The notes beneath the pieces were generated by a model. It worked only from the letters and a program-made list of their open reading frames with translations. It made no database searches and was not told the DNA's origin. The position numbers were made by a program, and so were the translations under genes. Shown in pieces: positions 4,955 through 51,100 of a stretch of DNA of 53,859 nucleotides; position 1 is the stretch's first letter, and every line of letters starts with the position of its first letter. The stretch spans positions 1-53,859 of the IMG/VR virus record IMGVR_UViG_3300030106_005380, one strand, 5' to 3'. Origin of the DNA: a virus. Taxonomy: Duplodnaviria > Caudoviricetes.

Positions 4955-5566
4955 TTATCCAATCCTATTAGCTTGCATAGACCTAGTATTCATTCCTATG
5001 CCTCTTGACCTTTTTTCTCTTGCCAGTCTTTGCATTTCTTTGCGTCTTTCCCAACTCGTTTTTCCTTGTAAATCCATTGGCTCAGACCTCATGTCCTCAG
5101 CCATAGGAAAGGCTTCCATCCACTTTTCATCATCTCTTTCCTGTTTGCTTTTTACTCCTCTAGCCCCCTTAGCAGCGTTGCCTTTTGCAGCAGCTACTTT
5201 ATTAAGGTCGTCGTAGTATGCCTTTCTCTGTCGTGAATATCTCGAACCGCCATGTCCTCGTACCTCTCCTCCAATTAATCTAATTGGGACGTTTGTGCCT
5301 CGCTGTAAGGCTCTCAATGATGTTCTGTACGGGTTAGCGTCGATTATTGCACGACCTCTTTGCTTTAACTTCCTATTCGGTGCTGCAAGATTATAGGTAG
5401 TATGCTGGCGTGGTTGTGGAGCCAATGGTCGCCATCTTTGCCTCGGAAACTGCAAGGGCTTATATGGCGTCTGTTGTTTTTGTGACATTGAAGGATACCC
5501 AGCAGGCATGGATCCCATACCTATCATAGGATTACCTCTCTTCTTGTATATAGATTTTAACGCCAT
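4955..5566 (-). CDS. K/R-rich hypothetical protein
   Basis: 203-aa, very basic ORF; first gene of the fibre operon. Confidence 0.6.
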   Translation of the reverse strand: MALKSIYKKRGNPMIGMGSMPAGYPSMSQKQQTPYKPLQFPRQRWRPLAPQPRQHTTYNLAAPNRKLKQRGRAIIDANPYRTSLRALQRGTNVPIRLIGGEVRGHGGSRYSRQRKAYYDDLNKVAAAKGNAAKGARGVKSKQERDDEKWMEAFPMAEDMRSEPMDLQGKTSWERRKEMQRLAREKRSRGIGMNTRSMQANRIG

Positions 5567-7432: not shown

Positions 7433-8203
7433 CTAGTCACGCAAATGTGAAACTTTATGTGAAAAATCATCGTAGGCTACGCTGTAAGCCTTGCTGTTAC
7501 TGCGACCTGCTGTTTTAGCGTAGATGTCAGAACATATATCCCACTGTTTCCAAGAGATTTTATCACCTCTCATCATCTGCCTTGTAACGCTGACAAGAAA
7601 ACCCTGATAAGCGTTATCTAAAAACTTTTCTAACTCTTCAAGGTCTGAGGTTCCCCACACTTTATCAAAAAAGAATCCCCAAGTTTCACAGGCTTTGAGG
7701 TAAGTAATTACAAATCTCTCACGAGCGAGCTGTGCTTCTTTCTGGTAACGGTCTTCACGTTCCTGACGTTTGACCTCAGCTAACTGCTCATTAGAAAGTT
7801 CTGGGTTTTCCTCAGAAGGAGAGGCGAGCCATATCTCGTGCTTGATCTGCTTATTCTGCTCTCTGACTGTTGCTGCCATTTTTCTGGCTGCGATCTTAGT
7901 CTTTTCACCAAGGTACTGGTCAGCCGTCTTTTGAACGCATACGTTGCCAACTATAAAGGTCTTACCTTTTGAGTCCTCGATAATGCAGTGGTGCATTAGT
8001 CCCATTCCACAGTGGTAGCAGCTACCAAGTACAACGCCATAGTTGGAAGCCTCCTTGTGAGCCATGTCAAGAGCTGCATTGTATGCGCTAGGGTTGTGTT
8101 CCGCTAAAGCAGGTGACGGTAAAAGTATGCTGCCTACAAACTCGAATGGACCTATGCCCATGCCTGACTTCTCGAAAGGGTGAATTTTTTCTGCTGTATT
8201 CAT
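7433..8203 (-). CDS. Hypothetical protein with a putative Zn finger
   Basis: CYHCGMGLMHH...VGNVCV; preceded by the conserved leader TAACTCAAAAAACTAAC. Confidence 0.7.
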   Translation of the reverse strand: MNTAEKIHPFEKSGMGIGPFEFVGSILLPSPALAEHNPSAYNAALDMAHKEASNYGVVLGSCYHCGMGLMHHCIIEDSKGKTFIVGNVCVQKTADQYLGEKTKIAARKMAATVREQNKQIKHEIWLASPSEENPELSNEQLAEVKRQEREDRYQKEAQLARERFVITYLKACETWGFFFDKVWGTSDLEELEKFLDNAYQGFLVSVTRQMMRGDKISWKQWDICSDIYAKTAGRSNSKAYSVAYDDFSHKVSHLRD

Positions 8204-8226
8204 GTTAGTTTTTTGAGTTAGTTAAA

Positions 8227-8535
8227 TTATGCGCTCCACTTATCTTTGCCTTCTGGTCCCCATCCGAAAGAATGGAAGTGCTGGAGCTTGGTTTTAAGGT
8301 CAGCTAATGCTGGTCCTCCCGCATTGTAGGAATCAGTAATGAGTCGAAGCTCTTTCCTAGGAATGTCCCATCGAGGGTCGTCCATCCACGCCTCGTCATC
8401 ATCAAGTGAATCGAAGATAGGAAAACCAATCCATTCATCCATCTCAACATCGTACTGGTAAGTGAGCTGTAGCTTCTGACCGAAGCCGAACATGAAGGTT
8501 GGAAATAAGGAAGGAAAAGAAGTTGTTTTAGCCAT
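8227..8535 (-). CDS. Hypothetical early protein
   Basis: 102-aa ORF with the conserved leader and a promoter upstream. Confidence 0.65.
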   Translation of the reverse strand: MAKTTSFPSLFPTFMFGFGQKLQLTYQYDVEMDEWIGFPIFDSLDDDEAWMDDPRWDIPRKELRLITDSYNAGGPALADLKTKLQHFHSFGWGPEGKDKWSA

Positions 8536-8563
8536 GTTAGTTTTTTGAGTTATTTAAGTTGGT

Positions 8564-9907: not shown

Positions 9908-9908
9908 C

Positions 9909-10169
9909 TTACGCCTCCCTCCTTAACATTGAATCTGCAACCTTGTTCATTCTGCTGATTGTTTCTCTTATTGCCTTTAGTTCCGCAGCCAATCTTTCCT
10001 TTACAGCAACAGCATCGGCAGGGGAGTAATCTTCTTCTGCGTTGGCATCGAGTGTGTAGATGGTTTGTACTCTCGCTCTTAGCTCCTCCAAGGTAGAGTC
10101 GTAGGTAACTGAGTAACCATCACCGTAAGTATAACTTATTGTTATTGTAGGTAAGTAATTTAATTTCAT
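9909..10169 (-). CDS. Hypothetical early protein
   Basis: 86-aa ORF with leader TAACTCAAATAACTAAC, just downstream of the hammerhead candidate. Confidence 0.65.
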   Translation of the reverse strand: MKLNYLPTITISYTYGDGYSVTYDSTLEELRARVQTIYTLDANAEEDYSPADAVAVKERLAAELKAIRETISRMNKVADSMLRREA

Positions 10170-10186
10170 GTTAGTTATTTGAGTTA

Positions 10187-10246
10187 TTAGCTATCTCGTC
10201 AGATAAACTTGCTAAAGGCTGATGACTCCCCTTAAGGGAGTTTCGA
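10187..10246 (-). ncRNA. Candidate type II hammerhead ribozyme with pseudoknot
   Basis: Minus strand UC-GAAA-CUCCC-uuaag-GGGAG-UC^-AUCAGCCUU-uagc-AAGUUUAU-CUGACGA-GA-ua-GCUAA. Core nucleotides are intact and stem III is perfect. Stem II is 2 bp and stem I is imperfect. Confidence 0.6.
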
Positions 10247-10247
10247 A

Positions 10248-10463
10248 TTAAAAACCTGTGCCTACTTCGCTGTTCAAAAGACTGGCGATGTCTTTTTTTG
10301 TAAGTTTAAAATCAAAAGAGCTGATATTTGTTTCAGTGATGTTGCTTTTGCCGTGGCGCTCTTTTTCTTCTTTTAAGTATTCCAACGCTGCTTTTTTTGT
10401 AGGCAAGTAGTAAAGCTCGTCTTCGTTTCCGTGGAGTGTGTAAGATAATGTATATAGTGTCAT
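10248..10463 (-). CDS. Hypothetical early protein (71 aa)
   Basis: Start moved to ATG 10463 (MTLYTL), directly after leader TAACTCAAATAACTAAC. Confidence 0.65.
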   Translation of the reverse strand: MTLYTLSYTLHGNEDELYYLPTKKAALEYLKEEKERHGKSNITETNISSFDFKLTKKDIASLLNSEVGTGF

Positions 10464-10485
10464 GTTAGTTATTTGAGTTAATAAA

Positions 10486-11607: not shown

Positions 11608-12945
11608 TTAAATAATTCCCTCTGAGAAAGTCATTGTCTTTCTGTTGAAAATTACATCTATTGCACCCGTGGGACCGTTACGGTTTTTACATACCAGCAA
11701 ATCTCCATCTTCTTGGGCAATGCTTTGTTCTCTTTCTGGTCTATGAATAAGGATCACAGCGTCGGCATCTTGCTCAAGTTGACCTGATTCTCTTAGATCA
11801 CTCATTTTAGGGCGCTCACTTTTTTCAGATTCTCTCCTGAGTTGACAGAGACAAACAACAGCCACGTTGGCGGATCGTGCTGCTGCCTTTAATTTTGCTG
11901 AACATTCCGTTATCAGGAGGTAACGACTCTGTCTCTGTTCTTGGCTGTCAGGTCTGATAAGTCCAATGTAATCAATGACAACAACTTCAATTCCTTTTCT
12001 GCCAGCTTCACGAATCTTTGAGCAGGTTTGTGCAATAGTCAGGGTGGGGGGATCATAAATTTCTAAATCCCACTGCTTTAAATTTTTCATAGCGTTGGTA
12101 ATTTTAGAATGTTCAACAGCATTAGGTCTTTCTTCGTAGCTGGCGACCTGATAGCTAGTTTGTGATGCTTCGGCTATGAGTCGTGTACTCACCTGTACGC
12201 TTGTCATTTCGAGCGATATGAAAAGACTCCTGTGATTATTTTTTGCCAATCCGCTCATGAGATTGCATGCCAGTGCCGTTTTACCTGCTGACGGTCTTGC
12301 TCCAACTACGATGAATGCTTGTCGTTGAAGTCCACCAATCGTTTTGTCTAATTTTTCAAACCCAGTTTGCGCTCCTTTTATTCCTGGGTTTTTGTGATTC
12401 TCCATTTGCTGGTCAAGCAACTCATTGAGTACAGTTCCAATGGTTTTAGATTGGTCAGCGTGATGCTGCTTTAACTCTTTGAGTGAGTGAATGCCTTCTT
12501 CCAATTGATCAAGGTTTACCGTTCCATCAGCAACGCCTTGTGTAAGGCTGTGAAGTTTTCGATGAGTTGCTCTGTGTACATGCTTATCGGCAACTGTCTT
12601 TGCATAGTAATCGATGTGATCGGCTGCTTCGTGAGAGTTGTCAGTGGCGTCCATAATCTCGCTCCAAATTCCTGATGGGAGCTTTTCCGACATTTGACCA
12701 ACTTTAATTGCCAGTGCTGAAAGGCTTAAGGGGGTATCCTCGTCAACCATTTCAAGGATTTGATCCCATATTTTGCCTCTCCATGGGTTAGAAAAATACG
12801 ATCCATTTGGAATAATTTTGACAGCTTTGTTGACTGCGTTTTCCCCAGAGCTATCTCCATAGCTTTCGTCAGCAGCAAAGCATCCGATAACTTTAAGCTC
12901 TGCTGCCTTCAAGGCTTCATCTTGATAATTAAGTTCGTCGATCAT
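11608..12945 (-). CDS. dnaB: Replicative DNA helicase, DnaB family
   Basis: GARPSAGKT Walker A, SLEM, VVIDYIGL, QLRR, DLRESGQLEQDAD, KNRNGPTG. Confidence 0.96.
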   Translation of the reverse strand: MIDELNYQDEALKAAELKVIGCFAADESYGDSSGENAVNKAVKIIPNGSYFSNPWRGKIWDQILEMVDEDTPLSLSALAIKVGQMSEKLPSGIWSEIMDATDNSHEAADHIDYYAKTVADKHVHRATHRKLHSLTQGVADGTVNLDQLEEGIHSLKELKQHHADQSKTIGTVLNELLDQQMENHKNPGIKGAQTGFEKLDKTIGGLQRQAFIVVGARPSAGKTALACNLMSGLAKNNHRSLFISLEMTSVQVSTRLIAEASQTSYQVASYEERPNAVEHSKITNAMKNLKQWDLEIYDPPTLTIAQTCSKIREAGRKGIEVVVIDYIGLIRPDSQEQRQSRYLLITECSAKLKAAARSANVAVVCLCQLRRESEKSERPKMSDLRESGQLEQDADAVILIHRPEREQSIAQEDGDLLVCKNRNGPTGAIDVIFNRKTMTFSEGII

Positions 12946-14638: not shown

Positions 14639-14908
14639 ATGGACGAACTTGATAATTTTTTTCACGTAGAAGTATGGAAAGAAAATGCTTTCTTTTTTAT
14701 AAGCCAACTGAAGAAAGGTCAGATCCTTTCAGCCGATAATATCGTCGAAATGGCTGAGACGGATCCAGAAATAGCATCACCTCCGCCAAGTGGCACTTGG
14801 CAATGGCCCATCGCAGAAGCTGAATGCGTCGATAAATTAATATTTACGGGAAAGGTTGGTCCTAAAGTCAATTACTTGCCTATTAACCCAATTTACAGGG
14901 TGGCATAG
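14639..14908 (+). CDS. Hypothetical protein
   Basis: 89-aa ORF, divergent from the replication operon and convergent with int. Confidence 0.5.
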   Translation: MDELDNFFHVEVWKENAFFFISQLKKGQILSADNIVEMAETDPEIASPPPSGTWQWPIAEAECVDKLIFTGKVGPKVNYLPINPIYRVA

Positions 14909-16121
14909 TTGATAACCATTTTTCACCTTCTTCGGGTGTAATCTCACCGAGGTAGTTTGATTTGATCATTGCGACGGAGTTATCACTTCGCAGCGCAGCT
15001 TCTCCCATTTCAACTCCTGTAGCAACCCATGAGCTAATGCAAGTATGACGGTGACCGTTGGCAACGTGTTCAACTCCTGATCGCCTTGAGGCATGTTCAA
15101 GTCTCTTGCTTATATACTTTGCTGAGTCAGTTCCAGCTATTGGCCCTTTGGAATTTTCATCCGCTCCAGCATAGCGAAGCCAAGCCTCAAGGGTGGGGGA
15201 GATGGCTACTTTACGGTGAGCTTTATTGTTTTTCGATACAGCAGCGGGGATTCGCAGATACTTTGTTTTCCATATAAAATTATTTTCCCAAGTCATTCTC
15301 GAAATTTCACAAACTCGGCAGGCAGCGAAGGCAGCGAGGGCGATCATAATAACCACCTCTTTATTTTTAGTCTTACACCTCATCCCGCTGGCTGTTTTGA
15401 GTAAGGTTGGCAATAAGTCAATATCCCATAATTCGACCTCTTCTACGCCCTTTTTTGAGCGTATTGCCTTTTTTTGCAGAATGTTGGCTGCATGATTGCC
15501 GTACGGGAGATATTTCATCATCTGGGCATAGTTGAAAAACTCTATAATCTTAGCCTGATAATTATAAACTGTTCTGGGCGCCCGCCCTGCAATAATAGAG
15601 GTATTCCACTCTAAAATCTCCTGCTCTGTTATTTCGTGAATATCAAACGGAAACATTTCCGTGAAAGGAAGAATCATATTTAGACCGCCTATTGTTGATT
15701 TGCACCGATTTAAATCCTTTTTGTTCTGCTTAAGCTCGTCCCAGATGGCCACAGTTGATTTGGGAGTGAACTCATCAGGCTGCTTTTGTCGATTAGTTAC
15801 AGCCTCATTAATGAGGGTGTCTATACGGAGTCGATCAGGTGAATCTTTTATTCTGGCAAAAGAATTTAGAAGATCGACGGCTGCTTTATACTCATTGAGT
15901 TCACGACCCGTTAAAGTAACGGCATCTCTTTGTTTTGTAATTTTGGTTTTTCTAGCTGCTGCTTTTGCCTCTTTTATGGTCTTATAAGTTCTTCTTATAC
16001 TCTTGCCATTTTCGCTGTGATATAAGGTAAAAGAGTTTCTGTTTTTGTAGATTGAAAAGGTCGTACTCCCTACTTTGAGTCTATCTACTATAGTTGAATC
16101 TTTGCTTTTTAATTTAGGCAT
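14883..16121 (-). CDS. int: Tyrosine integrase
   Basis: ACRVCEI (R), VSK (K), NGHRH (HxxR variant), SDNS..MIKSNY (catalytic Y); adjacent to a tRNA-derived att core. Confidence 0.92.
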   Translation of the reverse strand: MPKLKSKDSTIVDRLKVGSTTFSIYKNRNSFTLYHSENGKSIRRTYKTIKEAKAAARKTKITKQRDAVTLTGRELNEYKAAVDLLNSFARIKDSPDRLRIDTLINEAVTNRQKQPDEFTPKSTVAIWDELKQNKKDLNRCKSTIGGLNMILPFTEMFPFDIHEITEQEILEWNTSIIAGRAPRTVYNYQAKIIEFFNYAQMMKYLPYGNHAANILQKKAIRSKKGVEEVELWDIDLLPTLLKTASGMRCKTKNKEVVIMIALAAFAACRVCEISRMTWENNFIWKTKYLRIPAAVSKNNKAHRKVAISPTLEAWLRYAGADENSKGPIAGTDSAKYISKRLEHASRRSGVEHVANGHRHTCISSWVATGVEMGEAALRSDNSVAMIKSNYLGEITPEEGEKWLSTMPPCKLG

Positions 16122-33279: not shown

Positions 33280-33606
33280 ATGAGTGAAACTGAAAAAAAT
33301 AACACAGAAATTACATTACCAGATATCCCAATCACGGATGCTCGCTTGGACATGTTAGGGTCTAAGATAGCGCCCTCACTCCGTGATGAGATATATGATT
33401 CAGTAGGTAAGACGCCATTACTCAAGATGGGTAAGGAAATGAGGGAATGTGCAATTATTGCAGCAATGATAGGGGTTGGCTTTAAATTATGCGTGAGAGC
33501 AATAGATTTAGGTGCAACCTGTGAAATATCAAGAGTGCTGGGTGATGATAATTGGCTTCTTTATGGTACTCAGGGAGGTGAACCGCTGGAGGATTTTAAT
33601 GAGTGA
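33280..33606 (+). CDS. Hypothetical protein
   Basis: 108-aa ORF. Confidence 0.55.
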   Translation: MSETEKNNTEITLPDIPITDARLDMLGSKIAPSLRDEIYDSVGKTPLLKMGKEMRECAIIAAMIGVGFKLCVRAIDLGATCEISRVLGDDNWLLYGTQGGEPLEDFNE

Positions 33607-34153
33607 AGCTAAGAAAAAACCAAGAGGACAGGCAAAGAAAAGAGCTAAGGGTAAACAAATTATTACCAAAGGCACTCAATTAGGGTCTGCCTGCAAAACT
33701 CTGAGCTATTATCAAAAGATAAAAAAGGCTGCTGAGTTGAGCAACGAAGGCAAAAGCGGGAAGGAGATAGCTGAATTAATGAATTGTCATCCTTCATCGG
33801 TGACGAGGTATTTACAACATGCAACCAAGCTGGCTGCTCAAGAAATATCAGATCTGATGGATTATGAAGTAGCCTTTCAGATAAACACGACAGGCGACCT
33901 CATAAATACCCTTAGAAAGCATTTGGTTTATAAAGACAACCTTGGCAACGTCCGAGTTGATGCAGGGGCTGCTGGGCAGCTTTTAAGCGCTTTAAACCGT
34001 AGAGCTAAGATATTTGGGTTAGATAAACAGGCTGAGGAGCAGACTTCACGGAATGGTGACGGAGATACTTATAATATTGTTATGGCAAGATTTGAAGAGG
34101 CTGTTGAGAGGGGAGCAATGAAGAGGGAAGATATACCTGTTTTGAACATGTAA
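33599..34153 (+). CDS. HTH protein, probable terminase small subunit
   Basis: Likely start ATG 33599 (MSEAKK); GKSGKEIAELMNCHPSSVTRYL HTH and RRAKIFGLD motif. Confidence 0.6.
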   Translation: MSEAKKKPRGQAKKRAKGKQIITKGTQLGSACKTLSYYQKIKKAAELSNEGKSGKEIAELMNCHPSSVTRYLQHATKLAAQEISDLMDYEVAFQINTTGDLINTLRKHLVYKDNLGNVRVDAGAAGQLLSALNRRAKIFGLDKQAEEQTSRNGDGDTYNIVMARFEEAVERGAMKREDIPVLNM

Positions 34154-35791: not shown

Positions 35792-36159
35792 AAGGGGAGC
35801 CTCTTAAGGCTTGTGATTTATATTGTACGGTTGATGGGATCAATCGACGTAAAGACTTTACGGCAACAATCAGGCTGGCAACAGAGCGTGAATGTGGCAG
35901 GGAATTGTATCATGATCTGGTTGATCTACAGGGAGCCACAGCACGGGTTATAATTGCCCCAGATAATGTGGATCCAGAAGCACCCATGGTAAGTGATGAA
36001 GGCGCAAATAAGCACCCTAGTGGCTCTCTATCAAAGCGACTGCGTAGCGTCCTTTACAGGCGTTGGGAAAACTCAGAGCATTCCAAACACTTTTCTTTCG
36101 ACAAGTATTATAAGATGCAGATGGAAAGCATCATCGAGAGTCAGAAAGAACTTATTTAG
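35770..36159 (+). CDS. Hypothetical phage protein
   Basis: 129 aa; SLSKRLRSVLYRRW...FDKYY..QMESII pattern. Confidence 0.65.
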   Translation: MDEYQMVEGEPLKACDLYCTVDGINRRKDFTATIRLATERECGRELYHDLVDLQGATARVIIAPDNVDPEAPMVSDEGANKHPSGSLSKRLRSVLYRRWENSEHSKHFSFDKYYKMQMESIIESQKELI

Positions 36160-39100
36160 CCAGCACCTCTTCCACATCTTCAGGAACTTCAAATCCCTCA
36201 GAAGTATAAGGACGCATTCTTTTGTAGGCTGTTGATTCTTTTTTATTAATCAGCATGTAATTCATTGGGTTATCGCCTGCATCATCAATTAGTGGAGCGA
36301 CTTCCCATGTCTTAGAAAGCTCAAGCGAGATAGGTCGATTATCAGCCATGTTAACAAGATTGCCGTACTGGTCACGGCTCATATTTTCGACAACTTTCCT
36401 CAAGAAGTCAGGCTTTGAGTCTTTAGGAATGCCGTCAATTTTGTTATCCTTTTGTAATCGGTCTGCCACTTTCCCCTCAGCTTTAATCATGCTTCTAATG
36501 GAATCATGGTAGGCAGGGCTTTGGGTGTAGATACTCCATTCATTAATGGCTTTGGCTTCCTTCTTATCAAGAGTGAGCGGATTTTCGACAGCCTTGTTTA
36601 TCAGTCTATCCATATCCTTAAAGCTCTCCATACCCGTTTGTGCTAAGGCTCTCTCTATAGTTGGCATCACCTCAATTCTGAGAGTCATATCTAGAAGTCT
36701 TTGAGCGGGCTTCACAATTCTTAAGGTCGCTGGATCAGGATATTTAATAACAATAGTCCCATCCTTATCATCATCCACAAGAGTTGACCCACTCAAGTCT
36801 ATGCCCATAGATTGGAGCTGCATAAGATCGCTTCTGACGTCTGCACGCTGGAGCATTGCATGATCAAAAGAAGTTGTTTTAACAAACTCGCCTTTGCTTA
36901 CTTCAGTTGTGTCATCAAGGTCCAGTGTTTTTAGGCTTCCAGCAGGCATCACAGTTTTTGAAAGGAGAGGGATGTTTCTCTTCCAAGCATTCAAGAACTG
37001 GTCTGTTGAGGTCATATTAAAATCAAAAGGCTCACTTGGGTATCTGCGTCTCTGTATAGGATCAGTGACTCTTTGTAAGAATCTCCAGTATGGGGCAGGG
37101 ATTAGTGTTCTGGAGGAAATGATGTCAAAAGTGAAGTCGGCATACTCTTCAGGCTGAGTTTTGTTTTCATCATACTTGTTCTCTGTGAAGAGTGCCATTA
37201 CTGGACCACGAGGAATAAACTCCATCGCCATGTCCATTGTCTCACCTAAAGTGTCTCTAATATTCAACTGCTCATCTTCATCTCTTTCCTTAGAGATAGC
37301 GTCAATCCACAAGTCTTGTGTTGCTAATATGTTTAAGTATGGCAAGGCTCTACCTCTAAGCCATAATTCCTGACCTGCTGCCTCCTCTGCTCCATAGGCT
37401 TCAAGATATCCTCTTACAGCATTAGTGATCTTGTCTCCAAATATGCTTGGCATTTCATCAAGGTTGAGTTTACCGCCTGACATTAACCAGAACCTCTTAA
37501 TGTATTCATCGTTAATATCCATGTTGGTTCCAACCTTGCCTGCTTCGAGTTTTGATTTTTCATCATCCTCTTCACCTAAGAGTCTCCATAGAAGAGTTCC
37601 CATTGCATAAAGGCTAAATCCAGAAGCTGCATTACGCCATTCGGCTCCACCCATTTTATCTTTCTTGCCCTTGCTGGTTAATAGCTCAGGAACTAACCCC
37701 ACTGGAGTGGTCTTTGTTAACAGCTTCCCGTAGTTGTAAATGAAATTACTAAATGGAATCAGTGCTGGTTTTGCTGCCTGCATGAGAGGGTGTTTGCTAT
37801 CCAGCCACATAGGAATATTGCTGTAGTCAAAAGCAAATAGCATTGCTGTACCGTAGGCTTCGTCGTGGATAGCGTCTGTATCCTTTACGCCCTTCATCCA
37901 GTCTCTTATCCATTTCTTTTTAGGAACATCAATTTTGCGACCTTCTGCCTTAGCTTTTCTAACCGCATCATTGTATGCCATTTGAGCGTGTGCTTTGTAG
38001 GAGGCATACATAAGGTTCTGCTTAACGGTAGGATCCATCTCGTGGAACTGAGCAATCTTGAGAACAGCAGAGCCTCCTTTAAGGTTCAGTAAATCTTTAA
38101 CTAATGAATCTTTTGGCTCCTTGCGCTCTATGCCTGAAACTAAAGTGTTATTATCAAATTTCTCACGAGGTATAATTTCGTTATATTTAGTTCTGCGATC
38201 TGTTGCAGCTTTAATGGCTTTGCCTATTTGTCCTTCTGCGAGCAATTTTAAAGCGCCTTTATCATAATCCTCATCGGTCAGCTTGCCTCTGATGTAATCA
38301 TCACCTGTTAGGAATGTATCTATTCCACTGTAATTACTTAGCCTTCTTGTAGCCAAACCTTTGAGAGTTTGCAGACCTGCTCTCAATTCATATTCTGCTC
38401 GTCTCCTGTCCTGTGGATTAGCTGCTCCTGTAGCCAAATAGATAGCAGCTTTATTAATACGATACATTCCTGCAAGACCAGCCTGCATATTAGGTGCTAA
38501 CCAGTTGAATAATATAGTTGCTGGTGCTGTTAGGAATCCAGAAATGACCTGTCCTAATAACCCTTGAATGACTCTGCCAAACTGATCAGCTTTACTGTGC
38601 CTTGCTGAAAGGTTATCAATGAGCGCTTCATACGTGGGTCTATCCATCATACGGTCCTGACCAATAAAGCGACTGGCTTTCTTATCTCCAAATAGAAACT
38701 CTAATATCTTTTGCTCCCTCTCATCATAGTTAGATTCATTTTCATTGAATAAAACTTTTTCCTGATAAGTGCTAAGTTCTGGATTTTGTACTGCCTCTTG
38801 CCAAAATTTATTGAGTGATGTTCCTCTAGCAGACTTGTCACTCATGACTAAAAGCATTCCCTTTAAAATATCATTGATTGTCTTTTTGCTTAATTCAACA
38901 TGACCTTCTGGTAGGCTGCCATCTTTAGGTATCGGCTTCGTTGCTGCCTCGATAAGTTTAAAAGCATTGTTCCTGCTTGTTCTCTCAAGGTGTGACTCCA
39001 AGGCTCTTATATCAAAGCCTTCAAATATGTTTAAAGTTTGTCCCTTCTCTCTAGCTGCTCCTGTTTTAACTCTTCTTGCTCCGCTGGTATTTAAAGTGAA

Positions 39101-42100
39101 AGCGCCAAGTCTTTTCTTAAACTGATCTTTTTCTAGCGCCTCTCTTGCTTTTACAGCAGCACCGCCAAGGATGGTAGCGATAGCCACATCAGGGGTATAA
39201 CCCTCGACAAAACCAGGGTCGCCAAGCTCTGTGTCTCCGAAGGCTTGCTTAAGAGACTCACGGTTGAAGATCGGTGTTTTAATTCCACTCGATGATGTGT
39301 ATGTCGCATTGCCGAAAAGTGGGTTAATAAATCTAACAAGAAAGATTCCAAGATCAGGATATTTAGCAATGAAGTCATTGAATAATCGCTGTTGGTCCTC
39401 TGCTGTAAAATGCTGCACAAGTAAGTAACCGTCCATCTCAGGTATGTAATCGCCCAGCTTCAAGGTGTGTGTATTGCCTTCACTCTCCTCAGTCATATAA
39501 CTGCCCTTAGACAAGTTCATAGCGTCAGCCTCATACTTAGGAATGAATCCCATGCGGGCATCAAATCCTCTAAAGGTGAATTGATTTTCAGTTATGTCTG
39601 CGTCTGGATTAACAGATTCAACATTGAGCCTTGCAGCCGTTGTATGTAACTCAGCAGAAAACTCTTTAAGCCTCTTTGCCTTTTTAAGTATTCTCCAGAA
39701 TGGAACCCCAACACGTTTCTTTAGTTCTCTTGAAAGACGTTCGCTGTACTCATTCACAGCAGCTTTAACTTTAGCCACGTTGTATTCAGCATCCCTAAGC
39801 GTTGATCCTGCTGTTCCTGAACCGCCATATAGTCCAGACATAAAATCCAAGAAGTCATATTTGCCTTGGAAGAAACGTCTTCTCCATCGTGACATTTCAG
39901 TTAAATTGTCTTTTCTTTTCTTAGCTCGTTCTTCTTTCTTAGCTTCTTTAACTTTTTGAGCTGTCTTAAGAAGCTCTGCTGTGGCTTTGTCTTGTTGAGC
40001 TTTCTTAGCCTTGTAGTCCTGTTCAAGATTGTCAGGATCCAAAGCATACCTTGTGTCTCCAGCAGCAGGCATTACACCTTCTGCAATGGTTTTCCAGTTC
40101 TTGCCAAAATCTTTTTCTAGCGCTTTAGAAGCTGCTTTGAAGTAAGAGGATTTAGGATTGCCTTTATGTCTGTTGTAAAGGTTTATGAAATTTTGTTGCC
40201 TCTTGGTTTTTTCGACAGCCTTTGGACGACGCATGACCGCCTCCGCATATTCTCTATCCTCAACCATAGCGAGTAGATCAGGATGTCCTTTATAATTTTC
40301 AAGACGACGCCTTTCATTAATTAGATCTTCTACAATCTGCTTGGGCTGTCCGTCTTTTATAAGGGTACTAACCTGTTCAGCCAACTTAGTTTTAAAGTCA
40401 CTGGTGATCGGATTATCGTCATTAACAGGCTGTAAAGTTTCTTCAACCTTATCAGCCAAGGCGTAGAGCCTATCTTTATTCTCATCAGTTGCAGGAATAT
40501 GGTCATAAGCGCTCAGGATTGCCTCAGATGGCGCTCTATCCAGTGCCTTGGTAAATTCACCCTTGCCTTTAACAGCAGCAAGTTTCTTGCCTTCTACGGG
40601 ATCCAAAGCGAAGAGGGGAGGGACATACGGAAGTTGACCCTTCATCTCAGGGGTGAACTTGATAGCATGTGTTGGATCAAATCCCTCTGCATACTTCAAT
40701 TCAGTATTATCTAAAGTTTGTAAGAATTGGTTTATTTGATCAAAGTAAGTTGATAGTTTTTGATACGGTACGGCATAATCAAATGAACCTCCTGTTTCAA
40801 ACATTAAGTCCAACTGTTCAACAAACTTTAATAAACTTTTTGGGTTGTTCTCAATTGCAGCACTAACAAATCCACCTAACGCTTGTTCGCTTTTATTGGC
40901 TTTTTCCATTCCTCTGTAAGGCAAACGAGCGCTCACTAGACCTGAAAATTTCTTACCCATCATCTCGGAAAAATTCTCTTTATAGAAAATAGGGGCGTAT
41001 TTCCTCTCTCCAAGTCCTGTGTCCTCATAAGGCACTCTAATACCGTATGTTGGATTTTCGTTAGCTTCACTTATGAGTTTATCAAATTCTTCTTGATACC
41101 CTTTTCTATCATCAAATGGTATATAGGAATAAAGAATAGACACTAAATTTTGCTTATCTTTAATCTTTTCATCAAAATCAAAATCTGTTGCAGTCTCTGC
41201 CAGAGAAAAAGGCTGGCTTCCCATTCTGTATTCTACAAATGAAGGAATGTTTGAAACGTGGTCATAAAGATCTAAGTCGTCTGCGAGGATTTTAAATTTC
41301 CTGTGCAGTGGGGAAAAGTTTTGAGCGTCCTGACTGCTACTATCTTCAGTAATTCTAAAACGGCTCCAAACTGTTTTCCAGTAATCTGCAATCTCTTGAG
41401 TGAGTTCAGAAATATCATCAAAATTTATTCTGGAAACACCTCCAAAGGGGTTGATCATAGAGTATAAATCCGTCTTGTAATCCAATAACTTCATTCTAAG
41501 ACGATTGTATTCTTTATGCTCGTCAAATTCGCCATCTCTCATGGCTAAGGCTGAAGCCTTAACTCTACCCGTAGCTGTTTCATTATAGAGTCTTTTAACT
41601 TCAGGGGCTGGAATTTGATAAGCTGTGTCAAAAAGCAGTGGCTTACTTTCAAGTTTGGCGTTGAATTTTTTGAGGTAACCTTTCTTGCCAGTCAAGAAAG
41701 ATGGAGCTGCAACATCGTAAAGCATACGGTGTAACTGCCCTCCAATACTTAGATCATCACCACTATATGTGCCTTCGTCTTCTTTAGAAGAGCGTATAGA
41801 GTCAGCTACTTTTTTGCCTACAATATTTTCTAATGACTTATTGTGTAATCGGCTATCTGGGTCAGATAGTTTACCCGTTAAAGGAACGCTTCCCACATCC
41901 AAGGGGTCGCCTTCTACAGAAACAGCTTTTAAATATACCTTCCCATCTTCTTGTTTTGTGTACTTTATAGCTTTGACGTTTTGCCTTAATCTGTCTTTAT
42001 ACAGTTTAACCTGCATATTTCCTGTAGCCCACGCCAGTCCATCAAAATCATTTTTAACGGCTAACCTAATAGCGTGTTTCAAAGCAGCTTCATACCATGT

Positions 42101-45100
42101 ATTAAGAATCGGAAGGTAAGGTATATTGGTGGCAGTAAAGCCACCCGTTGCTATATCCTCCATGCCCTCTGCCTTTTGGTAGATTGCGCCTATTTGTCGA
42201 TCAAAGGCATCTATTGCACCCCCAGTTAACGAAGCTAAACCTCCTGAAAAGTCAGGAAAAAGCTGTAAGGATGTTAAAAATTCCTCATAACTAGGAATAA
42301 TCTTAGGGTCTATTGTTTGGTAAATCTCTTCAAGTGTTGGTGGAGCAATTCCGCCCATCTCTTTATCCTGAGACGCATTAAATTCTAAGGAACTTTCAAG
42401 ACGACTATACAGTTTTTTTGTACTAAGCAGTGTTCTTATTACCGAAGTTACTGTCTGCGGGCGACTCAATCCAGTGACTTGTACATTGCTAGTTCTTGTC
42501 CTTAACATATTGACATAGTCATTGTCGCTGTTAATGACTTCGATGAACCTTTCAGCAGTAGGAATTAATTTAAGTTTTTCAATCTCTTCGGGCGATAAAG
42601 ATTGAAGGGCTTCAACGTGATTTTTCTCAGATTCTAATCCTGCCCTTAACCATCTTACTGCGTCGTAGGTGCTGGAATCCCTATCACCCCTGCTCTCCAC
42701 TCGACCCCGTTGTTCTCTTTCAGACATTTCATCTGCTCTTGCTTCTCTAATGCCTGAAGTTTTATCCCATTCACCTAACACATCTATCAAGGCTTTTACG
42801 GCTACTTCATGTCTCTTGAAATGTTCCCTGTATGCCTTTTTACCCATTGACCTAATACCCTCTTTTCCAACAGCGTCAGCAGTACGAATGAGGTTATCTA
42901 TTTCAATACCAAAATCTTTTATCTGTTGTCTAAAGCCTGCATCTTGTCGGTAATCAGTCGCATAATCACTTTGAATTTCTTCTATGAATAAATATTTATC
43001 ACCGTTCTCAGCGATTCTGTCGCTGGTTCTCATGTGGAAAAGAATATTTTTCTTTATGCCTCCGAAATGTTGAGGTGTATATATAACCTCTTGGTCAGCT
43101 TCATCACTGGCGGGATCATATAAATAAAAAACAAATTCCTTATAATTTTCTCCACCCTTTTGTCTCCAGTCACTATACATGACGGAGTTTTCGTTTAACT
43201 CCGCAACCCCAATTCTCATTTGGTTTAACGATGCAAAGTCATACAGGTCTGCTTTTTTTATTGTCCCTTTTTGATATTGGTTGTTGTGATCTAATATCCA
43301 CTGCTCTAAGCCCATCCAATCAACCTCAGCTTTTTTAACTCCCGCTGTTTTGCCAGGCTTGAAGAACGCTAATGCTTGATCGATAGATGCTTTCTCTGGA
43401 AATTTATTTTTAATTGCGCTAACAACTCCTGAATAAAAAGGTTCAGTGTCAGGATCTAAAGCAAATCTTATATCCTCTCTCTCTGGATCAAATCGTTCAG
43501 ACAATGGAATGACGTTACCTTCATTGTCATAGGTAACTGGATCTGCTTTTTTAATCTGCTCAGACTCAAATACAGAATAAGTTGTTGTTGGCTTGTCCCC
43601 TCTAACCACACCTGTCTGATAGTTATCTCTGACGTTTTCTATGATGACGCCATCCTTGCCTTCTTTGAGGGCTTTCTCAATGACGTTTCTTGTTCTGCCT
43701 GCCCCTTGAGCGCTACGCCATTTCGCTCCTTTCCCGTCAACCATATAAGGGTCATCAATCTTAATATAATAGTAATCAGTTCTTGGTTCTGCGTTCTGAA
43801 AGTCAAATGCTCTAGTATCATCAGCGTAAGTGGTTGCTGTATTGTAATCCTTAGCAAACCAATGGACTGCTGTGTCTGCCCACTCTTTGGGTCTAAATAC
43901 AGGATCGCTATCTAAAAATCTTCCATCAGGAGTACCATGCCATCCCTTGTATTTATAACCTGCATTCTCCGCAGCTCTATCAAGGAGTTTAGTTAGGTTC
44001 CAATAGTTATTATCAGGATCCTCAGCTAACCTCAAATACTCAGCGTCAGTTTCAGGATCAATGGCAAAGCGTTTAGTTGGAGACTTCTTAATTGCATCTT
44101 CTATTTCTTTAGGACCATAGGTTCTTGCGGGTTCCTGCGTGATTAGTTCCTCGCTTATCAAGCCTACATCCTCTGCTTTTTTGAGGGCTTCAGCATCAGC
44201 GCTAATGTGCATCTTGATGCTTCGTAGTCCTAAGTCTCTTAATACAGCGTATCGGTGTCTGCCGTTTATAAATTGAACTGAAAGTTCTCCTTTGGAGTTG
44301 GATTTAATTCGTGCTTCACTGGCTCCAATCGGCAAGTCAGTTTCAAGATATTCTTTAAAGGCTTCATACCTATTTGCAGGGAAAGCAAATCCACGTTTTT
44401 TGGTTTTTCTTTCAACGCTTTTTTCTGGAAAAGCTACGCCTCCTTCTCCACCTTTACCTATATACAATCCTGTATTCTTTTTAAATAACTTATCAAAATC
44501 TTTAACATTAACTTCAACAAATTGACTGTCTTCAGATGGAGTTCCCCTTGGCGATATTCTGTTAATAATCCCTCTCTTAGTTTCAGGATCTAAGGCAAAG
44601 AGTTTAGTTCCTCTATCAGTTTTCCGATACGTCATTTGCGAAAAGAGATAATCAAAATGTGGGGTGAAAATTTCTTTCTGTTCTTGTTGAGTTGGATAAG
44701 CTCCTCCAGTGGGATCAATATTAGCGAGGAAGTCGTTTGAAATTCCAGTTCCTGCCAACTTATTAACCACGTAACCCTCGAAGGCTCTCGCTGCTAACTC
44801 GATATTGGTGGAGTAATAGTCTTCTGTTCTTGCTTCATCAAATTTCTCTGCTCTTTTCTTAAAGTCGCTTGACCTAATTTTTCTCATCAGATCAACAAAA
44901 GCATCTATAACGTCATCACTGACATATTGAGCAATAGGTTTAGAGTGGCTTGTGATATACTCTGTGATATAACCACTAGCGCCTACGTCTGTTTTGTCTT
45001 TCTCATTTAGTTTTGAATAATAGTTATCCAATCCATGGAACCACTCGTGGGCTAGGGAACCTGCTCCTCTTTTTTTCGTAAGATTGATAGCAATCTTGAT

Positions 45101-48100
45101 AGGCTCATAGTGTGCAGCAGCAGCTCTCTTACCACCACTGCCTCTAGCTCCAAAAGCTAAGGCTAAGGTTCCATCTAATGAAAGAGCTTCGGTCGGTATA
45201 TTAAGGACTGAAGCTAAATCATTAAGAGCATCATAAGTTTCATTAAGGTTCTGTTGGCGACGTTTATTCTCAACGTAGTTTCCAAACTCAACGCCTCTGA
45301 ATCCAAACCGTGACATGAATTGATCAGGGTCAATGTTTTCATTGGGTCTTCTTAACCTTTCACCTTCTCTTGGTCTGTTTTCCTCACGCCTGAGCTTTAC
45401 ATTTTTCTTTTCGTTAAAGAGTTGTTCTATTTCATCAAAGTTATCTCTTAGGTAAGCGTGTGCATCAGAGACTGTTTCAAACCCATCCTTAAGTCTTATG
45501 ATTCGTCTGCTAACCTTTCTAGCAATGTAAATACTTTTATCCAGTCGGCTTTGATAGACTCCGTATGGCTTACGTCTCCTGTCCTCTTTGTCAGGATCAG
45601 GCTCTGTCTTCATCACCCTTTTAATCTGATCAGCTATTTCCATGATAGCTTCTTGAGGATCAGTCTTGAAGGATTTAGGGGCTGTTATTTTTGCTCTTTT
45701 GTTGTACTTGGCAACGTAAGCGTTAGTGGGCTTGTCTAGTGGCTCGCCCTGTTTGTCATAATTAACATTTCTGAAGTAGCCGATGCTCCACTTTTTAGCC
45801 TTAGTAAAATCAGGTAGTCCTAATGCTCGATACAGCATTGTTTTGCTCGCTATCTTTCCTAGCTGAGTGTTGACCCCATTAGCAGGAGCTATACCCACCT
45901 TTTTTCTTAAATCATAGTCTTCTTGTGTGGGCGTACGTCTTACAAAGGAATAAGATTTGATGTCCTTTAAAATTCCTGCCTCGTGAGAAAGTAATTCTTT
46001 CCACGCATTTGCAACTTCTGAATCAGGCTCTGTAAGTAGCTGGGTGGCTATCTCTCGCAAGGTTCTAAAAGTTTCAGCCCAGTTTCTGAGTTTAAATTTA
46101 CCTTTTGGTTTAGCAGGAATTGAATCTCTTATAGCAGCTATGGAAGCAAGCGTTTCAATACTCACACCTTCCTTAGCGAGTTGCTTGTAGTTTGGCATCG
46201 GGAAGTCCTTTGCCATCGTTATGTTGGCATCATCACCAACAAAACTTTCCATCTTCTCTAAATAGTCAGCATAAATATCTTTCTTAGCTCCACCTATCTT
46301 TTGACCAAAGTCCTCAATCTTTTCTTTAGTTTTTGGCAGTTGTGGCTCTCCAACTGGTAATGTTGGTGACTCTTTTTTCTTAGACTGAAAATTGAAAAAC
46401 TGTTGCTGTACTCTTTTAATGCCTCTTCGAGCAGGAGCATTACTGAAGTTAAAAGTTCCCTGATCAGGATCTAAGGCATAAACTTTTAAATCGCCAAGGA
46501 CTGGAAATGTTTTACCAGAACCGACAGTCCTATCATAGTTTTGTGACTGAGTGATGGCATCGGCAAGAACTGACCTGACTTCATCTAATCCTGAAATAGC
46601 ATCTACAGCCTCCCATTTTCTTCCCTTGCGTGGGGTTCTTCTAAATTTGTTTCTTAGTCCATCTATAAAGTCTACAAAAGATCTAACAGCTCGCTCACTT
46701 AACTTCGGTTCTTTAGGTAGGAATTTATCCCAGAACCTTTTATCCATGAACATATCGCCAGCAATGTTAGCTAAAGCCTCTTCTTCTATAACGCTAAAGT
46801 CGCCATCGTAAACGCCATGGTATTGACCAACGACAGTGCTTACTAACTCAGGGTAGAACCTTGCGTTCTTCTTTACGGCTGCTTTGTATTTGGCATAGAG
46901 GTCAGGATTAGTTTTCCTAAGTGTGTGCATAAACTCATGACCGAGTGTGGCAACAGGATCCCTGTATCCATCCAAGTTAATAAAGATAGTCCCTTCACTT
47001 ACAAGTCCTGACATGCGCTGACCTTGATCAGCTTTGTCTGCTGGCTCCATGAGGATAATGCGTCTGCCTGTCCTTTGCTCAAGGGCGAAAACAAGAGGTA
47101 AATTAATTCTGCCATCTACATCAGTTACATCTACAGGAACAAATTGCTGGGCTTCTGGCTGGCTTTTGTTTAAGCGATCAACCAGTTGTATTTGTTTCTT
47201 AGGGGATGTTTTAAGTTTTGTGGGAAGGCTGGCTAATCTCTCTTCTTTAGAACCCTCTTCCTCTAGCGTCTTTTGACCTGCTGCCGTGTTTTTGGCAGAG
47301 TTCATAGCCCGTTCAATCGCATCATACATTTTGCTCACAGAGTCGTATTCTCCGAAGAGTCCTTGACCTACAAGCGCCCTCATCATTTGATCAGGGTACA
47401 TGCCAGTTTCGCTGTAAATGCTATTGAAAACAGGGTTGGTTATATCTGGTTTGTCATCCCAAAGGCTTTGATTTTTTTTGTACTTTTCTTTGTTTTGCTT
47501 TTCAGCTTGAGATGATGACAAAAGACCGCCTTCATCAATGATGGCTGCGACAACTGGATCCTGTTCGTAAAATTCAACAAGCGGAGCAGTTCGCCTTGGT
47601 CTTCCAACTGGAGTCTCTACCGTCGGGGTCAGTACCCCTTCTTCATCGGGCGTAGTCGGCTCTTGTATGGATTCTTCTTCTTCTTTTTCTTCGGTTCGCT
47701 GGCGTATGTTTTCTTCCGTGCCTGTGAAGGTAGCTGGGTCATTGATGTCTTCCTGTACATTTCCTTGTGGTGTTTGTGTTGTTTGTTGGTCGTCTAATAT
47801 ATCAACAGCTCCAGATCGGTTTTGACCTGTCGGTGTATCCTGTCTAAATTCCCCAGTCCCTGGTCTTTCTGTACCAAATTCTCCTGTCCTAGTTACCTGT
47901 CTAATGCCTGCCTCATCTTCTACAGCTTCACGCTCCTCTTGGGCAGTTTCTTGAGCAACTTCCTGCTCGTCTCTTTCCTGTTCTAAAGTTTCTGTTTGTT
48001 CCGTCGTTAAATCTTCATCAACCTTTTCTGTTTGCTCTTCAGTATCTTTCTCTGCACTTTCTTTTTCAGGTTCAACCTTTTTACCTTCTTTTAAATCAAT

Positions 48101-51100
48101 AGTTGGCAGGTCAGCTTCAGCCACTGCATCAATGTCAGTTTGTATGACCTCTACTTCATAATCTATTATTCCTAGAGTCTCTGCATTCGTTGCACCTATC
48201 TCCATTCCCTTCTCCACGCTACTCAACTCCATGGATGGCAATGAAATGTAATTTTCAGGATCAGCGTTAGGAACTATTCTTATTTCGTATTTAGGTAAAG
48301 ATGGTTGATCAAGTTCTGCATCGGCAACCCCTGAGGTAATTTCACGACCATCTTTTACATTACTATTTATGATGCTGTCGTTGGTTGTCTCGCCATCCAT
48401 TGCAGGCTCGACGTTAGTGTCTACCTTGCCTCTGACCTGTACATCTGCTTCTTGTCTAACTCTTTCAGCTAAATTGTGTGGAAGGATCCTAGCTGCTGAA
48501 GCATTTACCTTCATGCCTCCGTCCTCATCTTGTGTGGCGACTCCTAAATCAACGAGTATTTGTGCATTCTCGCTGCGTGTTGCCTTGCCATCATTTAGAA
48601 TACTTTCAGTCTCTTTAGCTATAAATATGTATCCCTGTATAGCAGACACGGCAGCATCCTTTTGTAAAAGAGTGGCTTCACCGTCTACTTCTAGTGCAGA
48701 AAAAATGTTATTAATATTTTCCTCAGAAAGAATTGCAGCGTCCTCTGCAATCTGATTGCCAACCGCAATGGCATTATAAAGTGCCTCGCCACCAGTAACG
48801 GCTGAATCAAGTATAGCTTCTTGCGTTTCGGGTGAGATGTTTTGATTGGCAAGAATATTGGAAATAGTTCTTCGGGCAATGCCTATATTAATTAGATCAG
48901 CAGCTTTGTTAGCATGGGCAGCAGTAACCGCATTTCTGTTGTCGATTATGTCTACAATATCAGCGTCACCTCGTGCATTTTGTGAGAGTTCTTCTTTTGC
49001 TGTCTCTCCACCTGTAGCTGCTGCATCAACCTTATCTAAATCTTTTTCTATTTGTTTATAGGCTTCAGCAATTTGTTTCCTTTGTTTAAAGTCTGCACCA
49101 AAAGACCTGACCCCCATACTTCCACCCAGCAGGGCGCCTACATAGAAAGAGACAAGTCCACCCTCAGTATATTTCCTGTCAGGATCATACTTGGATCGAG
49201 CATACATGTTCTCCCAGAATGTTTGTGCTACCTCTGTACCGCCCTCTGCGCCTGACTTGATGCCAGCTCCACCAAGCGCAGCCATGAAAGCTCCTTTTTT
49301 AGTGGAGATTAAACTTTGATACGCCTTTTTAGGCATCCACTTTTTAAAGATCGAATGACCTTTTAGTAGCATTATATCAACTATAGAGTCTAAGCCTGCT
49401 ATACCAGCAGCGTGAAGATACATGTCCAATGTCCCTTCTGGACTCATGCCCGCCTCAACCATTTCTCTCACCATGCCTTCAGCCTGTGTTGAGAAGTTTA
49501 CGTTAAAGGCTGCTGCTGCACCTCCTAATTTGTGACCTACCGCATAAGTACCACCTTTGTAGGCTTTAGCGAATACGTAAAGCTGGGCAGCGCCATCAAC
49601 CAATCCATTCCAAGTCTGCATGGCTTTGGAGGTTCTTGCTTTAAAATCAGAAGCCACACTAGTTGGCAATTCCTCATCAAACTTTTTCTCCATGCGTTCA
49701 GCAAACTCTTGCGTCGCTTTGGCGTGATAGTGGTCACCAAATATTCTGTGAGGGATGTACATCATATTCATGACGCTTTTACCTACAGTTTTTAGAAGTC
49801 GGTTCTTAGTATCCTTAAAAAATCCAACATCTTTTCTAGTGACAACAAGGTTTTCTGAAACAAAATCAAGGTGATCTTCTATCAGACCGCCCTCTTTATC
49901 ATCCTGCCATGAGTTATAAGTCTTTTCTTTTATGATTGAGCTGTCACCTAACTCACCATCAATCTTGTATTCAAAGGTAGGCTTGCCTTTCTTCTCATCC
50001 TTAAGGCGTATTGAAAAGCCAAGTCCTGTTCTTTCATCAACGTCTATGTGTTTCCATTCGTACCTTGCTTGCCTTTGTTGTTCTGCAAAATTCTCTTTTA
50101 ATCTTCTTTGTGCGTTCTGTAATGCGCTTAAATTGATATTCTGATCAAACCACTCAACGGTTGGTTTTATATCAAGGAAAGGACCAAACTCTTCTGCGTT
50201 TTGTTGCAGTCTTTTCGCAATGAGTTTCTTCTCGTGGTTTTTAAGTTTAGTGGGATTGTCACGAAGGTTTTCAAACGCCATGCCTGTCCTCATGTCTTCA
50301 TAAGAACCTTTTGTTTGAGGTCGTCTCTTTCCTTCTGCAAATCCATAAGGTGAATCTGCATCTTTACCCATTAAAAGATAAGAGTGTAACTGTGAGGACC
50401 ACTGTACATTATCCAAATCAGCCAATAGCTGTTTATATATGTATCTTAATGAATATTGTTTGGCTTCCTCCTGTAAAACTCTTTTGGCGACACTAATGTT
50501 GGAGCCGTCGTATCCAGCTACTCCAACAGGCAGCTTGGGCTTGCCCATATCCGTGCTGCATAAGTCATCAATGTTTTGATAAAGTTTAGTTAAGCTGACG
50601 TCTTCTGGTGAAAGAACTACAGGAACTTTAGCCTGTGCTTCTGGGCTACTTGTTGAGTTTCGGTTCTCCTTGTGAGAAGCGTCTTCAGTAAGCGCATTTT
50701 GTGCCTCCTCGTCCTTTGGATTCTTTTCGGCATGGTGAGAGCTTATTCTGACCTTAGCGTCTTGAGCTGTAATTCCTGAGTTTAAGGATTCACCAATGGC
50801 TTGTACATTTTTTGTCTCTTCGCTTTGATCATCCTTTGGGGGCGTAACCTGTAACTTACCTTCTGTCGTGTTGACGGGCTTTGACTCCTCTGGTCGCTTT
50901 TCTTCATCCTTAGTTCCCTCATTCAAAGGGGTCATATAAAAGATGCCTGCGGGACCAATGTTTTTATAGAGACTGCCTTTATCCTTGTAACCTTCAAGGC
51001 TTTCCAAGGATTCCATCAGATTACCAGTGTAAGGTCTGGTTTTTAGATAGTTAGTGTATCGACCCTGTAAGATGTTCTGATATTCACTTTCAGTCTTATC

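Follow-up and report, generated by a model that had tools for sequence, protein, structure and literature searches.

The gap between two small, co-directional genes of an uncultivated phage from marine samples raises the question of whether these few dozen nucleotides encode a self-cleaving hammerhead ribozyme, and whether the copy in this particular genome still works. The window (the whole stretch of DNA analysed here, 53,859 nucleotides) is a complete 53.9-kb IMG/VR virus record, and the element occupies positions 10185-10248 on its minus strand, lying between a 71-aa ORF and an 86-aa ORF and taking up the interval from the stop codon of the first to the start of the second. Since 2011, pseudoknotted type II hammerheads have been on record between phage genes, and to our knowledge their function there is still undefined. 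The available text of Perreault et al. (2011, PMC3088659) describes a type II consensus that combines a 2-bp stem II with a pseudoknot between loop I and the 3' tail, and hammerheads that flank prophage genes. According to the part of a cyPhyRNA-seq study available to us (PMC8782182), direct mapping of RNA ends demonstrates in vivo cleavage by three type II hammerheads of Desulfovibrio vulgaris that lie close to phage-like genes. A role of bacterial and phage hammerheads in splitting mRNAs is treated, in the accessible sections of a review (PMC6765202), as proposed and not established. Our answer for the present locus is a joint one, which we hold with a probability of about 0.78: the element is a genuine type II hammerhead of the Rfam family Hammerhead_II, it is predicted to cut itself between positions 10224 and 10223, and the allele found in the window, with a U at 10205, is probably the slower one.

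Read on the minus strand, the element consists of UC, GAAA, the stem III hairpin, UC, the stem I hairpin, CUGACGA, GA, UA, GCUAA, and a 16-nt leader (Table 1). This leaves stem II open and stems III and I capped, which is the helix order of a type II hammerhead. All invariant nucleotides of the hammerhead core are present (C3-A9, G12-A14, A15.1-U16.1, and C17, plus the G10.1-C11.1 pair), in agreement with the invariant pattern C3 U4 G5 A6 N7 G8 A9, G12 A13 A14, and A15.1-U16.1, with any base but G at H17. A descriptor with the type II helix order matches with 2 bp in stem II, 6 bp in stem III, and 5 bp plus one mismatch in stem I, and the loop I/3'-tail pseudoknot, as defined from PMC3088659, forms between 10215-10211 and 10187-10191. 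Stem I extends over six positions, which include one C·U mismatch (10221·10205) and one G·U pair (10219·10207). The first-pass annotation had placed every segment correctly, base for base, on the minus strand; it had also described a mismatch and a bulge in stem I, of which the C·U mismatch stands and the bulge is not needed for the pairing.

Table 1. Features of the element and its flanks, numbered along the window.
Feature	Position	Strand	Pairing, basis, or remark
Stem II, 5' strand UC (U11.2, C11.1)	10246-10245	minus	Pairs with A10.2 and G10.1 (10194-10195); 2 bp, open
Stem II, 3' strand GA	10195-10194	minus	Sequence
Core GAAA (G12 A13 A14 A15.1)	10244-10241	minus	Aligned to Rfam consensus CGAAAC
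Stem III hairpin CUCCC / loop UUAAG / GGGAG	10240-10226	minus	CUCCC 10240-10236, GGGAG 10230-10226; possible sixth U·G pair
U16.1 and C17	10225-10224	minus	Rfam alignment position; predicted scissile bond 10224/10223
Stem I hairpin AUCAGC / loop CUUUAGCAA / GUUUAU	10223-10203	minus	AUCAGC 10223-10218, loop 10217-10209, GUUUAU 10208-10203
Core CUGACGA (C3 U4 G5 A6 C7 G8 A9)	10202-10196	minus	Sequence and Rfam alignment
3' tail GCUAA	10191-10187	minus	5-bp pseudoknot with loop I UUAGC (10215-10211)
Allele-specific base	10205	minus	U in this genome, G in every relative seen; A>C on the plus strand
Upstream cistron, 71 aa	10248-10463	minus	ORF list; start put at the AUG behind the repeated leader
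Upstream stop UAA	10250-10248	minus	Ends 2 nt before C11.1
Downstream cistron, 86 aa	9909-10169	minus	AUG 10169-10167
Repeated leader and AUG of the downstream cistron	10167-10185	minus	Without a Shine-Dalgarno sequence
Promoter-like TTGACT-17-CATTAA	10489-10517	minus	Upstream of the first cistron; putative

The Rfam model Hammerhead_II (RF02276) matches the element end to end (model positions 1-66; 26.5 bits, with E 6.9e-4 when 111 bases are searched against all 4227 Rfam families). L003, a close relative of the phage, is likewise matched over model positions 1-66, at 31.7 bits (E 5.4e-5), a score common to two near-identical relatives. Neither score reaches the Rfam gathering score of 37 bits, which is an operational cut-off for annotation and neither a structural nor a biochemical feature. 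The Infernal search with type II models that the first-pass annotation had proposed as a check succeeds as a full-length match on a short stretch and falls short of the level at which Rfam annotates. A scan of the whole window against Rfam at the gathering threshold, a scan of 251 bases at E of at most 10, and single-family RF02276 searches of the window's own record and of the records of two relatives each gave no match; since the same model does match when given 111-201 bases, we read these blanks as filter misses and not as absence. Blank results from whole-window cmscan runs, 251-base searches, or genome-record searches should consequently not be counted as absence of small ribozymes.

Compared with RF02276 as its available documentation presents it, the element shares the core, the circular permutation, the 2-bp stem II, and a pseudoknot of at least 4 bp with the nucleotides just after stem II, and its tail aligns to the conserved 3' tail of the model. 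It differs from the curated set in its lower scores and AU-rich stems I; the model also takes one nucleotide after the core as an insertion, and the window allele has its C·U mismatch in stem I.

The motif taken by itself is less telling. A descriptor scan finds the element as the only type II match in the window, and 150 dinucleotide shuffles of the window yield 143 relaxed matches of any topology, of which 8 have both stem III and stem I of at least 5 bp, or about 0.05 per window. From this frequency the bare motif is only moderately significant and not decisive; judged from the Infernal match together with the comparative data, the element is beyond chance. It also appears to be alone, as a search of the window with our own covariance model and filters off revealed no second hammerhead copy (next best 12.5 bits, E = 1).

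The comparative data come from a pattern scan of IMG/VR in which only the core, the GUC, and the first six bases of the tail were fixed and both hairpins were left free. It returned 66 loci, with a few pattern matches expected by chance according to rough arithmetic with a guessed collection size; 63 of the 66 have a stem III and a stem I of at least 3 bp each, giving 70 matches. The stem filter removed L009, L015, and L038, L040 is cut by a contig end, and 60 distinct sequences were left, making 61 copies with the window included. For the covariation alignment we used the 21 of these 61 copies that have a 21-nt stem I segment, chosen because MAFFT keeps their columns in register.

In these 21 copies, 98.7% of 399 cells hold standard pairs, against 70.5% in shuffled alignments (0 of 500 reach the observed level) and 33-38% when the columns are slid by 1-3 positions. 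Both sides change in 12 of the 19 pairs, and the covariation score of 0.760 compares with 0.175 after shuffling, again reached by none of 500 shuffles. Covariation extends to all six stem I pairs, four of six in stem III (15.3-15.6), and two of five in the pseudoknot, a helix in which 96.2% of cells are paired and where one pair, 50-76, occurs as AU in 8 copies, UA in 5, GC in 4, and CG in 2. Both stem II pairs are invariant in all 21 copies, C11.1 and G10.1 being fixed by the search pattern and U11.2 being free. A lack of covariation among homologues, which the first-pass annotation had named, together with a lack of Mg-dependent cleavage, as grounds for giving up the ribozyme, is thus the opposite of what the family displays, with compensatory changes reaching into the pseudoknot.

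Across all 61 copies, for which, as for the 21 aligned among them, the fixed core, GUC, and tail start and the required stems of at least 3 bp inflate and partly select the pairing near the core, 304 of 305 cells are paired in the inner five stem I pairs (the sole exception being the C·U of the window) and 183 of 183 at stem III indices 2-4; the outer pairs and the pseudoknot are free of this selection. A pseudoknot run of at least 5 bp is found in 48 of the 61 copies, compared with 44% after loops and tails have been exchanged among the copies.

When 12 of the loci were sampled, 4 of their 18 pattern matches passed the Rfam gathering score: two copies in L033 (60.3 and 60.2 bits), one in L072 (45.2 bits), and one in L068 (40.4 bits), which shares loop I and tail with the window copy. 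Two further Hammerhead_II matches lie outside the pattern in the same 12 loci. Because copies of the subfamily pass, L068 included, the window element is a low-scoring member of the same family and not a look-alike. Default Rfam annotation evidently misses most of the sampled subfamily, with filtered whole-window searches blank as well, so that hammerheads in phages are undercounted.

Placement is as consistent as structure. An ORF of at least 40 codons ends within 20 nt upstream of 47 of the 61 copies, and in 17 of those 47 the stop codon ends exactly 2 nt before C11.1, as in the window; for 58 of the 61 copies an ORF starts no more than 120 nt downstream (median 31 nt). Such tight placement supports the mRNA-splitting model for the family as a whole. 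The full-length Rfam match, the family covariation, and this intercistronic placement support the central proposal of the first-pass annotation, namely that two cistrons are separated by a type II hammerhead on their sense strand that has a stem II of 2 bp and a pseudoknot of loop I with the 3' tail. On sequence grounds, the element is of the common form defined by these two traits and is an additional member of an already known family; as a matter of ribozyme biology it is ordinary. Several loci of the set (L024, L033, L035, and L052) have arrays of 2-3 subfamily copies within 0.3-3 kb, each copy between small ORFs. L033 has an additional Hammerhead_II copy at 5188-5251 and a glutamine riboswitch match at 12245-12338 (36.1 bits against a threshold of 35).

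What sets the window apart within this family is a single base. Two IMG/VR contigs, L002 and L003, carry the same locus, with upstream genes 100% and 94% identical to that of the window, and inside the element they differ from it only at 10205, where they have G in place of U. The G restores the C1.3-G2.3 pair, so that stem I is fully paired in the relatives. Contigs from four of four other marine DNA runs, from four studies, span the element and all have G at this position; in one of them, run X6, the G·U pair 10219·10207 is also converted to G-C, and the contigs of the four runs show no further difference in 10185-10248. The G allele dominates in related populations, and the U of the window is a minority allele. 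With 2 variable sites in its 64 nt, the element varies no less than its flanks among these four runs of short divergence, and the population data alone therefore show no extra constraint.

The first alternative to weigh is that the element is a hammerhead by descent that is dead or nearly dead in this genome: the change from G to U at 10205 would break stem I and contribute one more pair to a small competing hairpin that spans the core, reducing the element to an intergenic spacer or hairpin and leaving both cistrons on one RNA. The mismatch is, as noted above, the only unpaired cell of its kind in the family, all six other sources carry G, and U lowers the Rfam score by 5.2 bits relative to L003. 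Nested folding points the same way, as the hammerhead fold has an energy of -4.2 kcal/mol with U and -9.2 kcal/mol with G, the U copy being the weakest of the 61, and the nested minimum free energy is -16.0 kcal/mol with U versus -14.6 kcal/mol with G, a competing fold that U slightly favours; these energies ignore the pseudoknot, and several family members have gaps equally large, so the measure does not separate active from inactive copies. Against a dead copy, pairing persists at five of the six stem I positions, nothing is disrupted in the pseudoknot, the core, or stems II and III, and the available text of PMC3088659 describes natural hammerheads that are active despite weak stems or even a variant core. 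We consider complete or near-complete loss unlikely on balance. With the third pair of stem I broken, the U allele is probably less well folded and slower to cleave than the G allele, and by our estimate the chance that it still cleaves measurably is slightly better than even.

Two related ideas can be set aside. The nested minimum free energy as a test of activity was rejected, since it recovers stem I in just 14 of the 61 copies, the pseudoknot not being modelled. The first-pass annotation had also pointed to an alternative pairing of UCAUCAG with CUGACGA that might make the ribozyme switchable; the pairing exists, with 6 of 7 positions paired, and it is not a feature of the family, in which an alternative run of at least 5 occurs in 8 of 61 copies, 4 of them near-identical. 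On that count a conserved switch is rejected as a family feature, and a designed switch is not supported.

A second alternative attributes the U at 10205 to an error of assembly or sequencing, or to a rare variant within the population, the phage itself carrying G and a fully paired hammerhead. The uniform G in the two related contigs and in the contigs of all four runs favours it, as does the fact that only X6 shows a second difference inside the element (at 10207). Two runs hold all sampled words of a 1.8-kb stretch around the locus and may be the source sample, which speaks for the record as assembled; these words need not cover 10205, and the observation is weak either way. We regard an error or rare variant as improbable. 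If the allele is real, phages that are otherwise near-identical differ naturally by U or G at stem I position 2.3, which makes them a convenient comparison for the effect of stem I stability on cleavage and downstream expression.

A more distant orthologue, L065, shows what is retained over longer divergence. Its 71-aa gene is 68% identical to the upstream gene of the window, and the layout is the same: promoter-like box, leader, gene, UAA, hammerhead, leader, and next gene. Relative to the G allele, the sixth stem III pair has changed on both sides, from U·G to A-U, another stem III pair from C-G to U·G, and the stem I G·U to A-U; N7, the one free position of the core, has gone from C to U, and the pseudoknot lacks its outermost pair. 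All invariant core bases are retained. Two other, more distant phage relatives with an exonuclease 71% identical to that of the window, L005 and L006, keep the promoter and leader layout and have no hammerhead within 4 kb, so synteny with them gave no covariation. The remaining alternative, a chance hammerhead-like arrangement around an ordinary intergenic hairpin (a transcript stabiliser, attenuator, or RNase site) without ribozyme ancestry, can draw on the frequency of comparably stemmed matches in shuffled windows and on the score below the gathering score, and it is scarcely credible, being contradicted by the strong covariation, pseudoknot included, by the L068 copy that shares loop I and tail and passes the gathering score, and by the invariant core of L065, in addition to the full-length covariance-model match with a significant E-value and a hairpin that has neither a U-tract after it nor a terminator predicted there.

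We thus return to a type II hammerhead, probably slowed by its U allele, and to what it would do. The element is sense-oriented between co-directional ORFs with no predicted terminator, and we take it as part of a polycistronic mRNA region. Once the 3' tail has been made, the RNA would fold and cut itself between C17 (10224) and A1.1 (10223); we infer the cut site and the chemistry of the ends from hammerhead chemistry and from what the available portions of PMC3088659, PMC6765202, and PMC8782182 describe. Of the two products, the upstream one would be the mRNA of the 71-aa cistron, with the stem III hairpin and a 2',3'-cyclic phosphate at its end. The other, downstream, would begin with a 5'-OH, 54 nt before the AUG, and would carry the stem I/pseudoknot fold, a 24-nt leader, and then the 86-aa gene and the genes that follow. 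We expect the halves to separate after the cut, since only the 2-bp stem II would still join them, and the two parts of the mRNA could then differ in stability and translation.

The surroundings of the element have a modular appearance. An almost identical 16-nt leader rich in A, U, and C runs into the AUG of four genes on the minus strand (8201-8219, 8533-8551, 10167-10185, and 10461-10479), four copies where 0.05 would be expected by chance. This suggests that the leaders are phage-specific translation leaders, perhaps for a host that does not rely on Shine-Dalgarno pairing. In L065 a leader of another sequence also recurs, in three copies, and L006 has a related one. Two of the leader copies have the same box upstream of them, TTGACTCATGT, with a run rich in A and T behind it (minus strand, about 10517-10489 and 8595-8567); these boxes are possible phage promoters heading cassettes of small genes. 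A consensus promoter scan flags the 8595 site and not the 10517 site. The stretch from the box at about 10517 to the downstream genes contains no predicted terminator. The ribozyme lies within a run of uncharacterised co-directional small genes, preceded upstream by an integrase, a resolvase, a replication initiator, DnaB, and an exonuclease; the 71-aa and 86-aa cistrons themselves have no PHROG or Pfam match. From this position, co-directional small genes after a replication module, an early-operon setting is plausible.

Two other readings of the element's own sequence were discarded: TTGATC/TTTATC inside stem I as a promoter, for which there is no -10 box at a workable spacing and nothing was flagged by the scan, and stem III as a terminator, for which there is neither a U-tract nor a predicted terminator. 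A difference between close relatives also falls at the leaders. L003 is without the 86-aa gene, exactly from start codon to next start codon (L003 3270-3300 versus window 9908-10169), and its hammerhead and leader run straight into the homologue of a 141-aa gene, which looks like the gain or loss of a cassette at repeated leaders.

A broader idea, which we offer as a long shot, is that the ribozyme is one half of a modular cassette joint in which promoterless cassettes obtain their 5' end from the hammerhead, upstream of the common leader. Were it true, several consequences would follow: (i) internal cistrons would gain a defined, structured 5'-OH end before the same leader as promoter-proximal ones; (ii) this end might serve 5'-end-dependent initiation, or stability, in a host not using Shine-Dalgarno pairing; (iii) the repeated leaders would be recombination points for cassette swaps, for which the missing 86-aa gene of L003 may be compared; and (iv) the U or G at 10205 would tune the amount of downstream cassette released.

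Among known systems, the element resembles the prophage hammerheads described in the available text of PMC3088659 (the triple array of Agrobacterium tumefaciens and others), in that it is in sense orientation, intercistronic, and near small uncharacterised phage genes; unlike the Agrobacterium tumefaciens prophage array, it is a single copy in an uncultivated marine phage and not in a bacterial prophage. With the Desulfovibrio vulgaris copies, as covered by the accessible part of PMC8782182, it has in common a type II architecture near hypothetical and phage-like genes. Those copies belong to another organism and habitat, the likeness is one of architecture and gene setting, and their activity is no proof for the window allele.

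Searches of GenBank phages yielded no match by blastn with 1.8 kb of the locus and only a 25-base chance match with 101 bases, and a tblastn search with DnaB gave nothing above 32% identity; these searches thus provide neither a cultured relative nor a host. No RNA runs are listed as holding the 1.8-kb stretch. Elsewhere in the genome, a single ORF of 5247 aa (36152-51895, minus strand) takes up about 29% of the 53.9 kb. A 213-aa ORF on the plus strand (33512-34153) has a PHROG match annotated as 'Rnase E' (phrog_645, E 2.2e-10), and a phage-encoded RNA-processing enzyme would bear on the fate of the mRNA beside the ribozyme. An integrase-family ORF at 14883-16121 on the minus strand (phrog_1, E 1.5e-19) suggests a temperate lifestyle.
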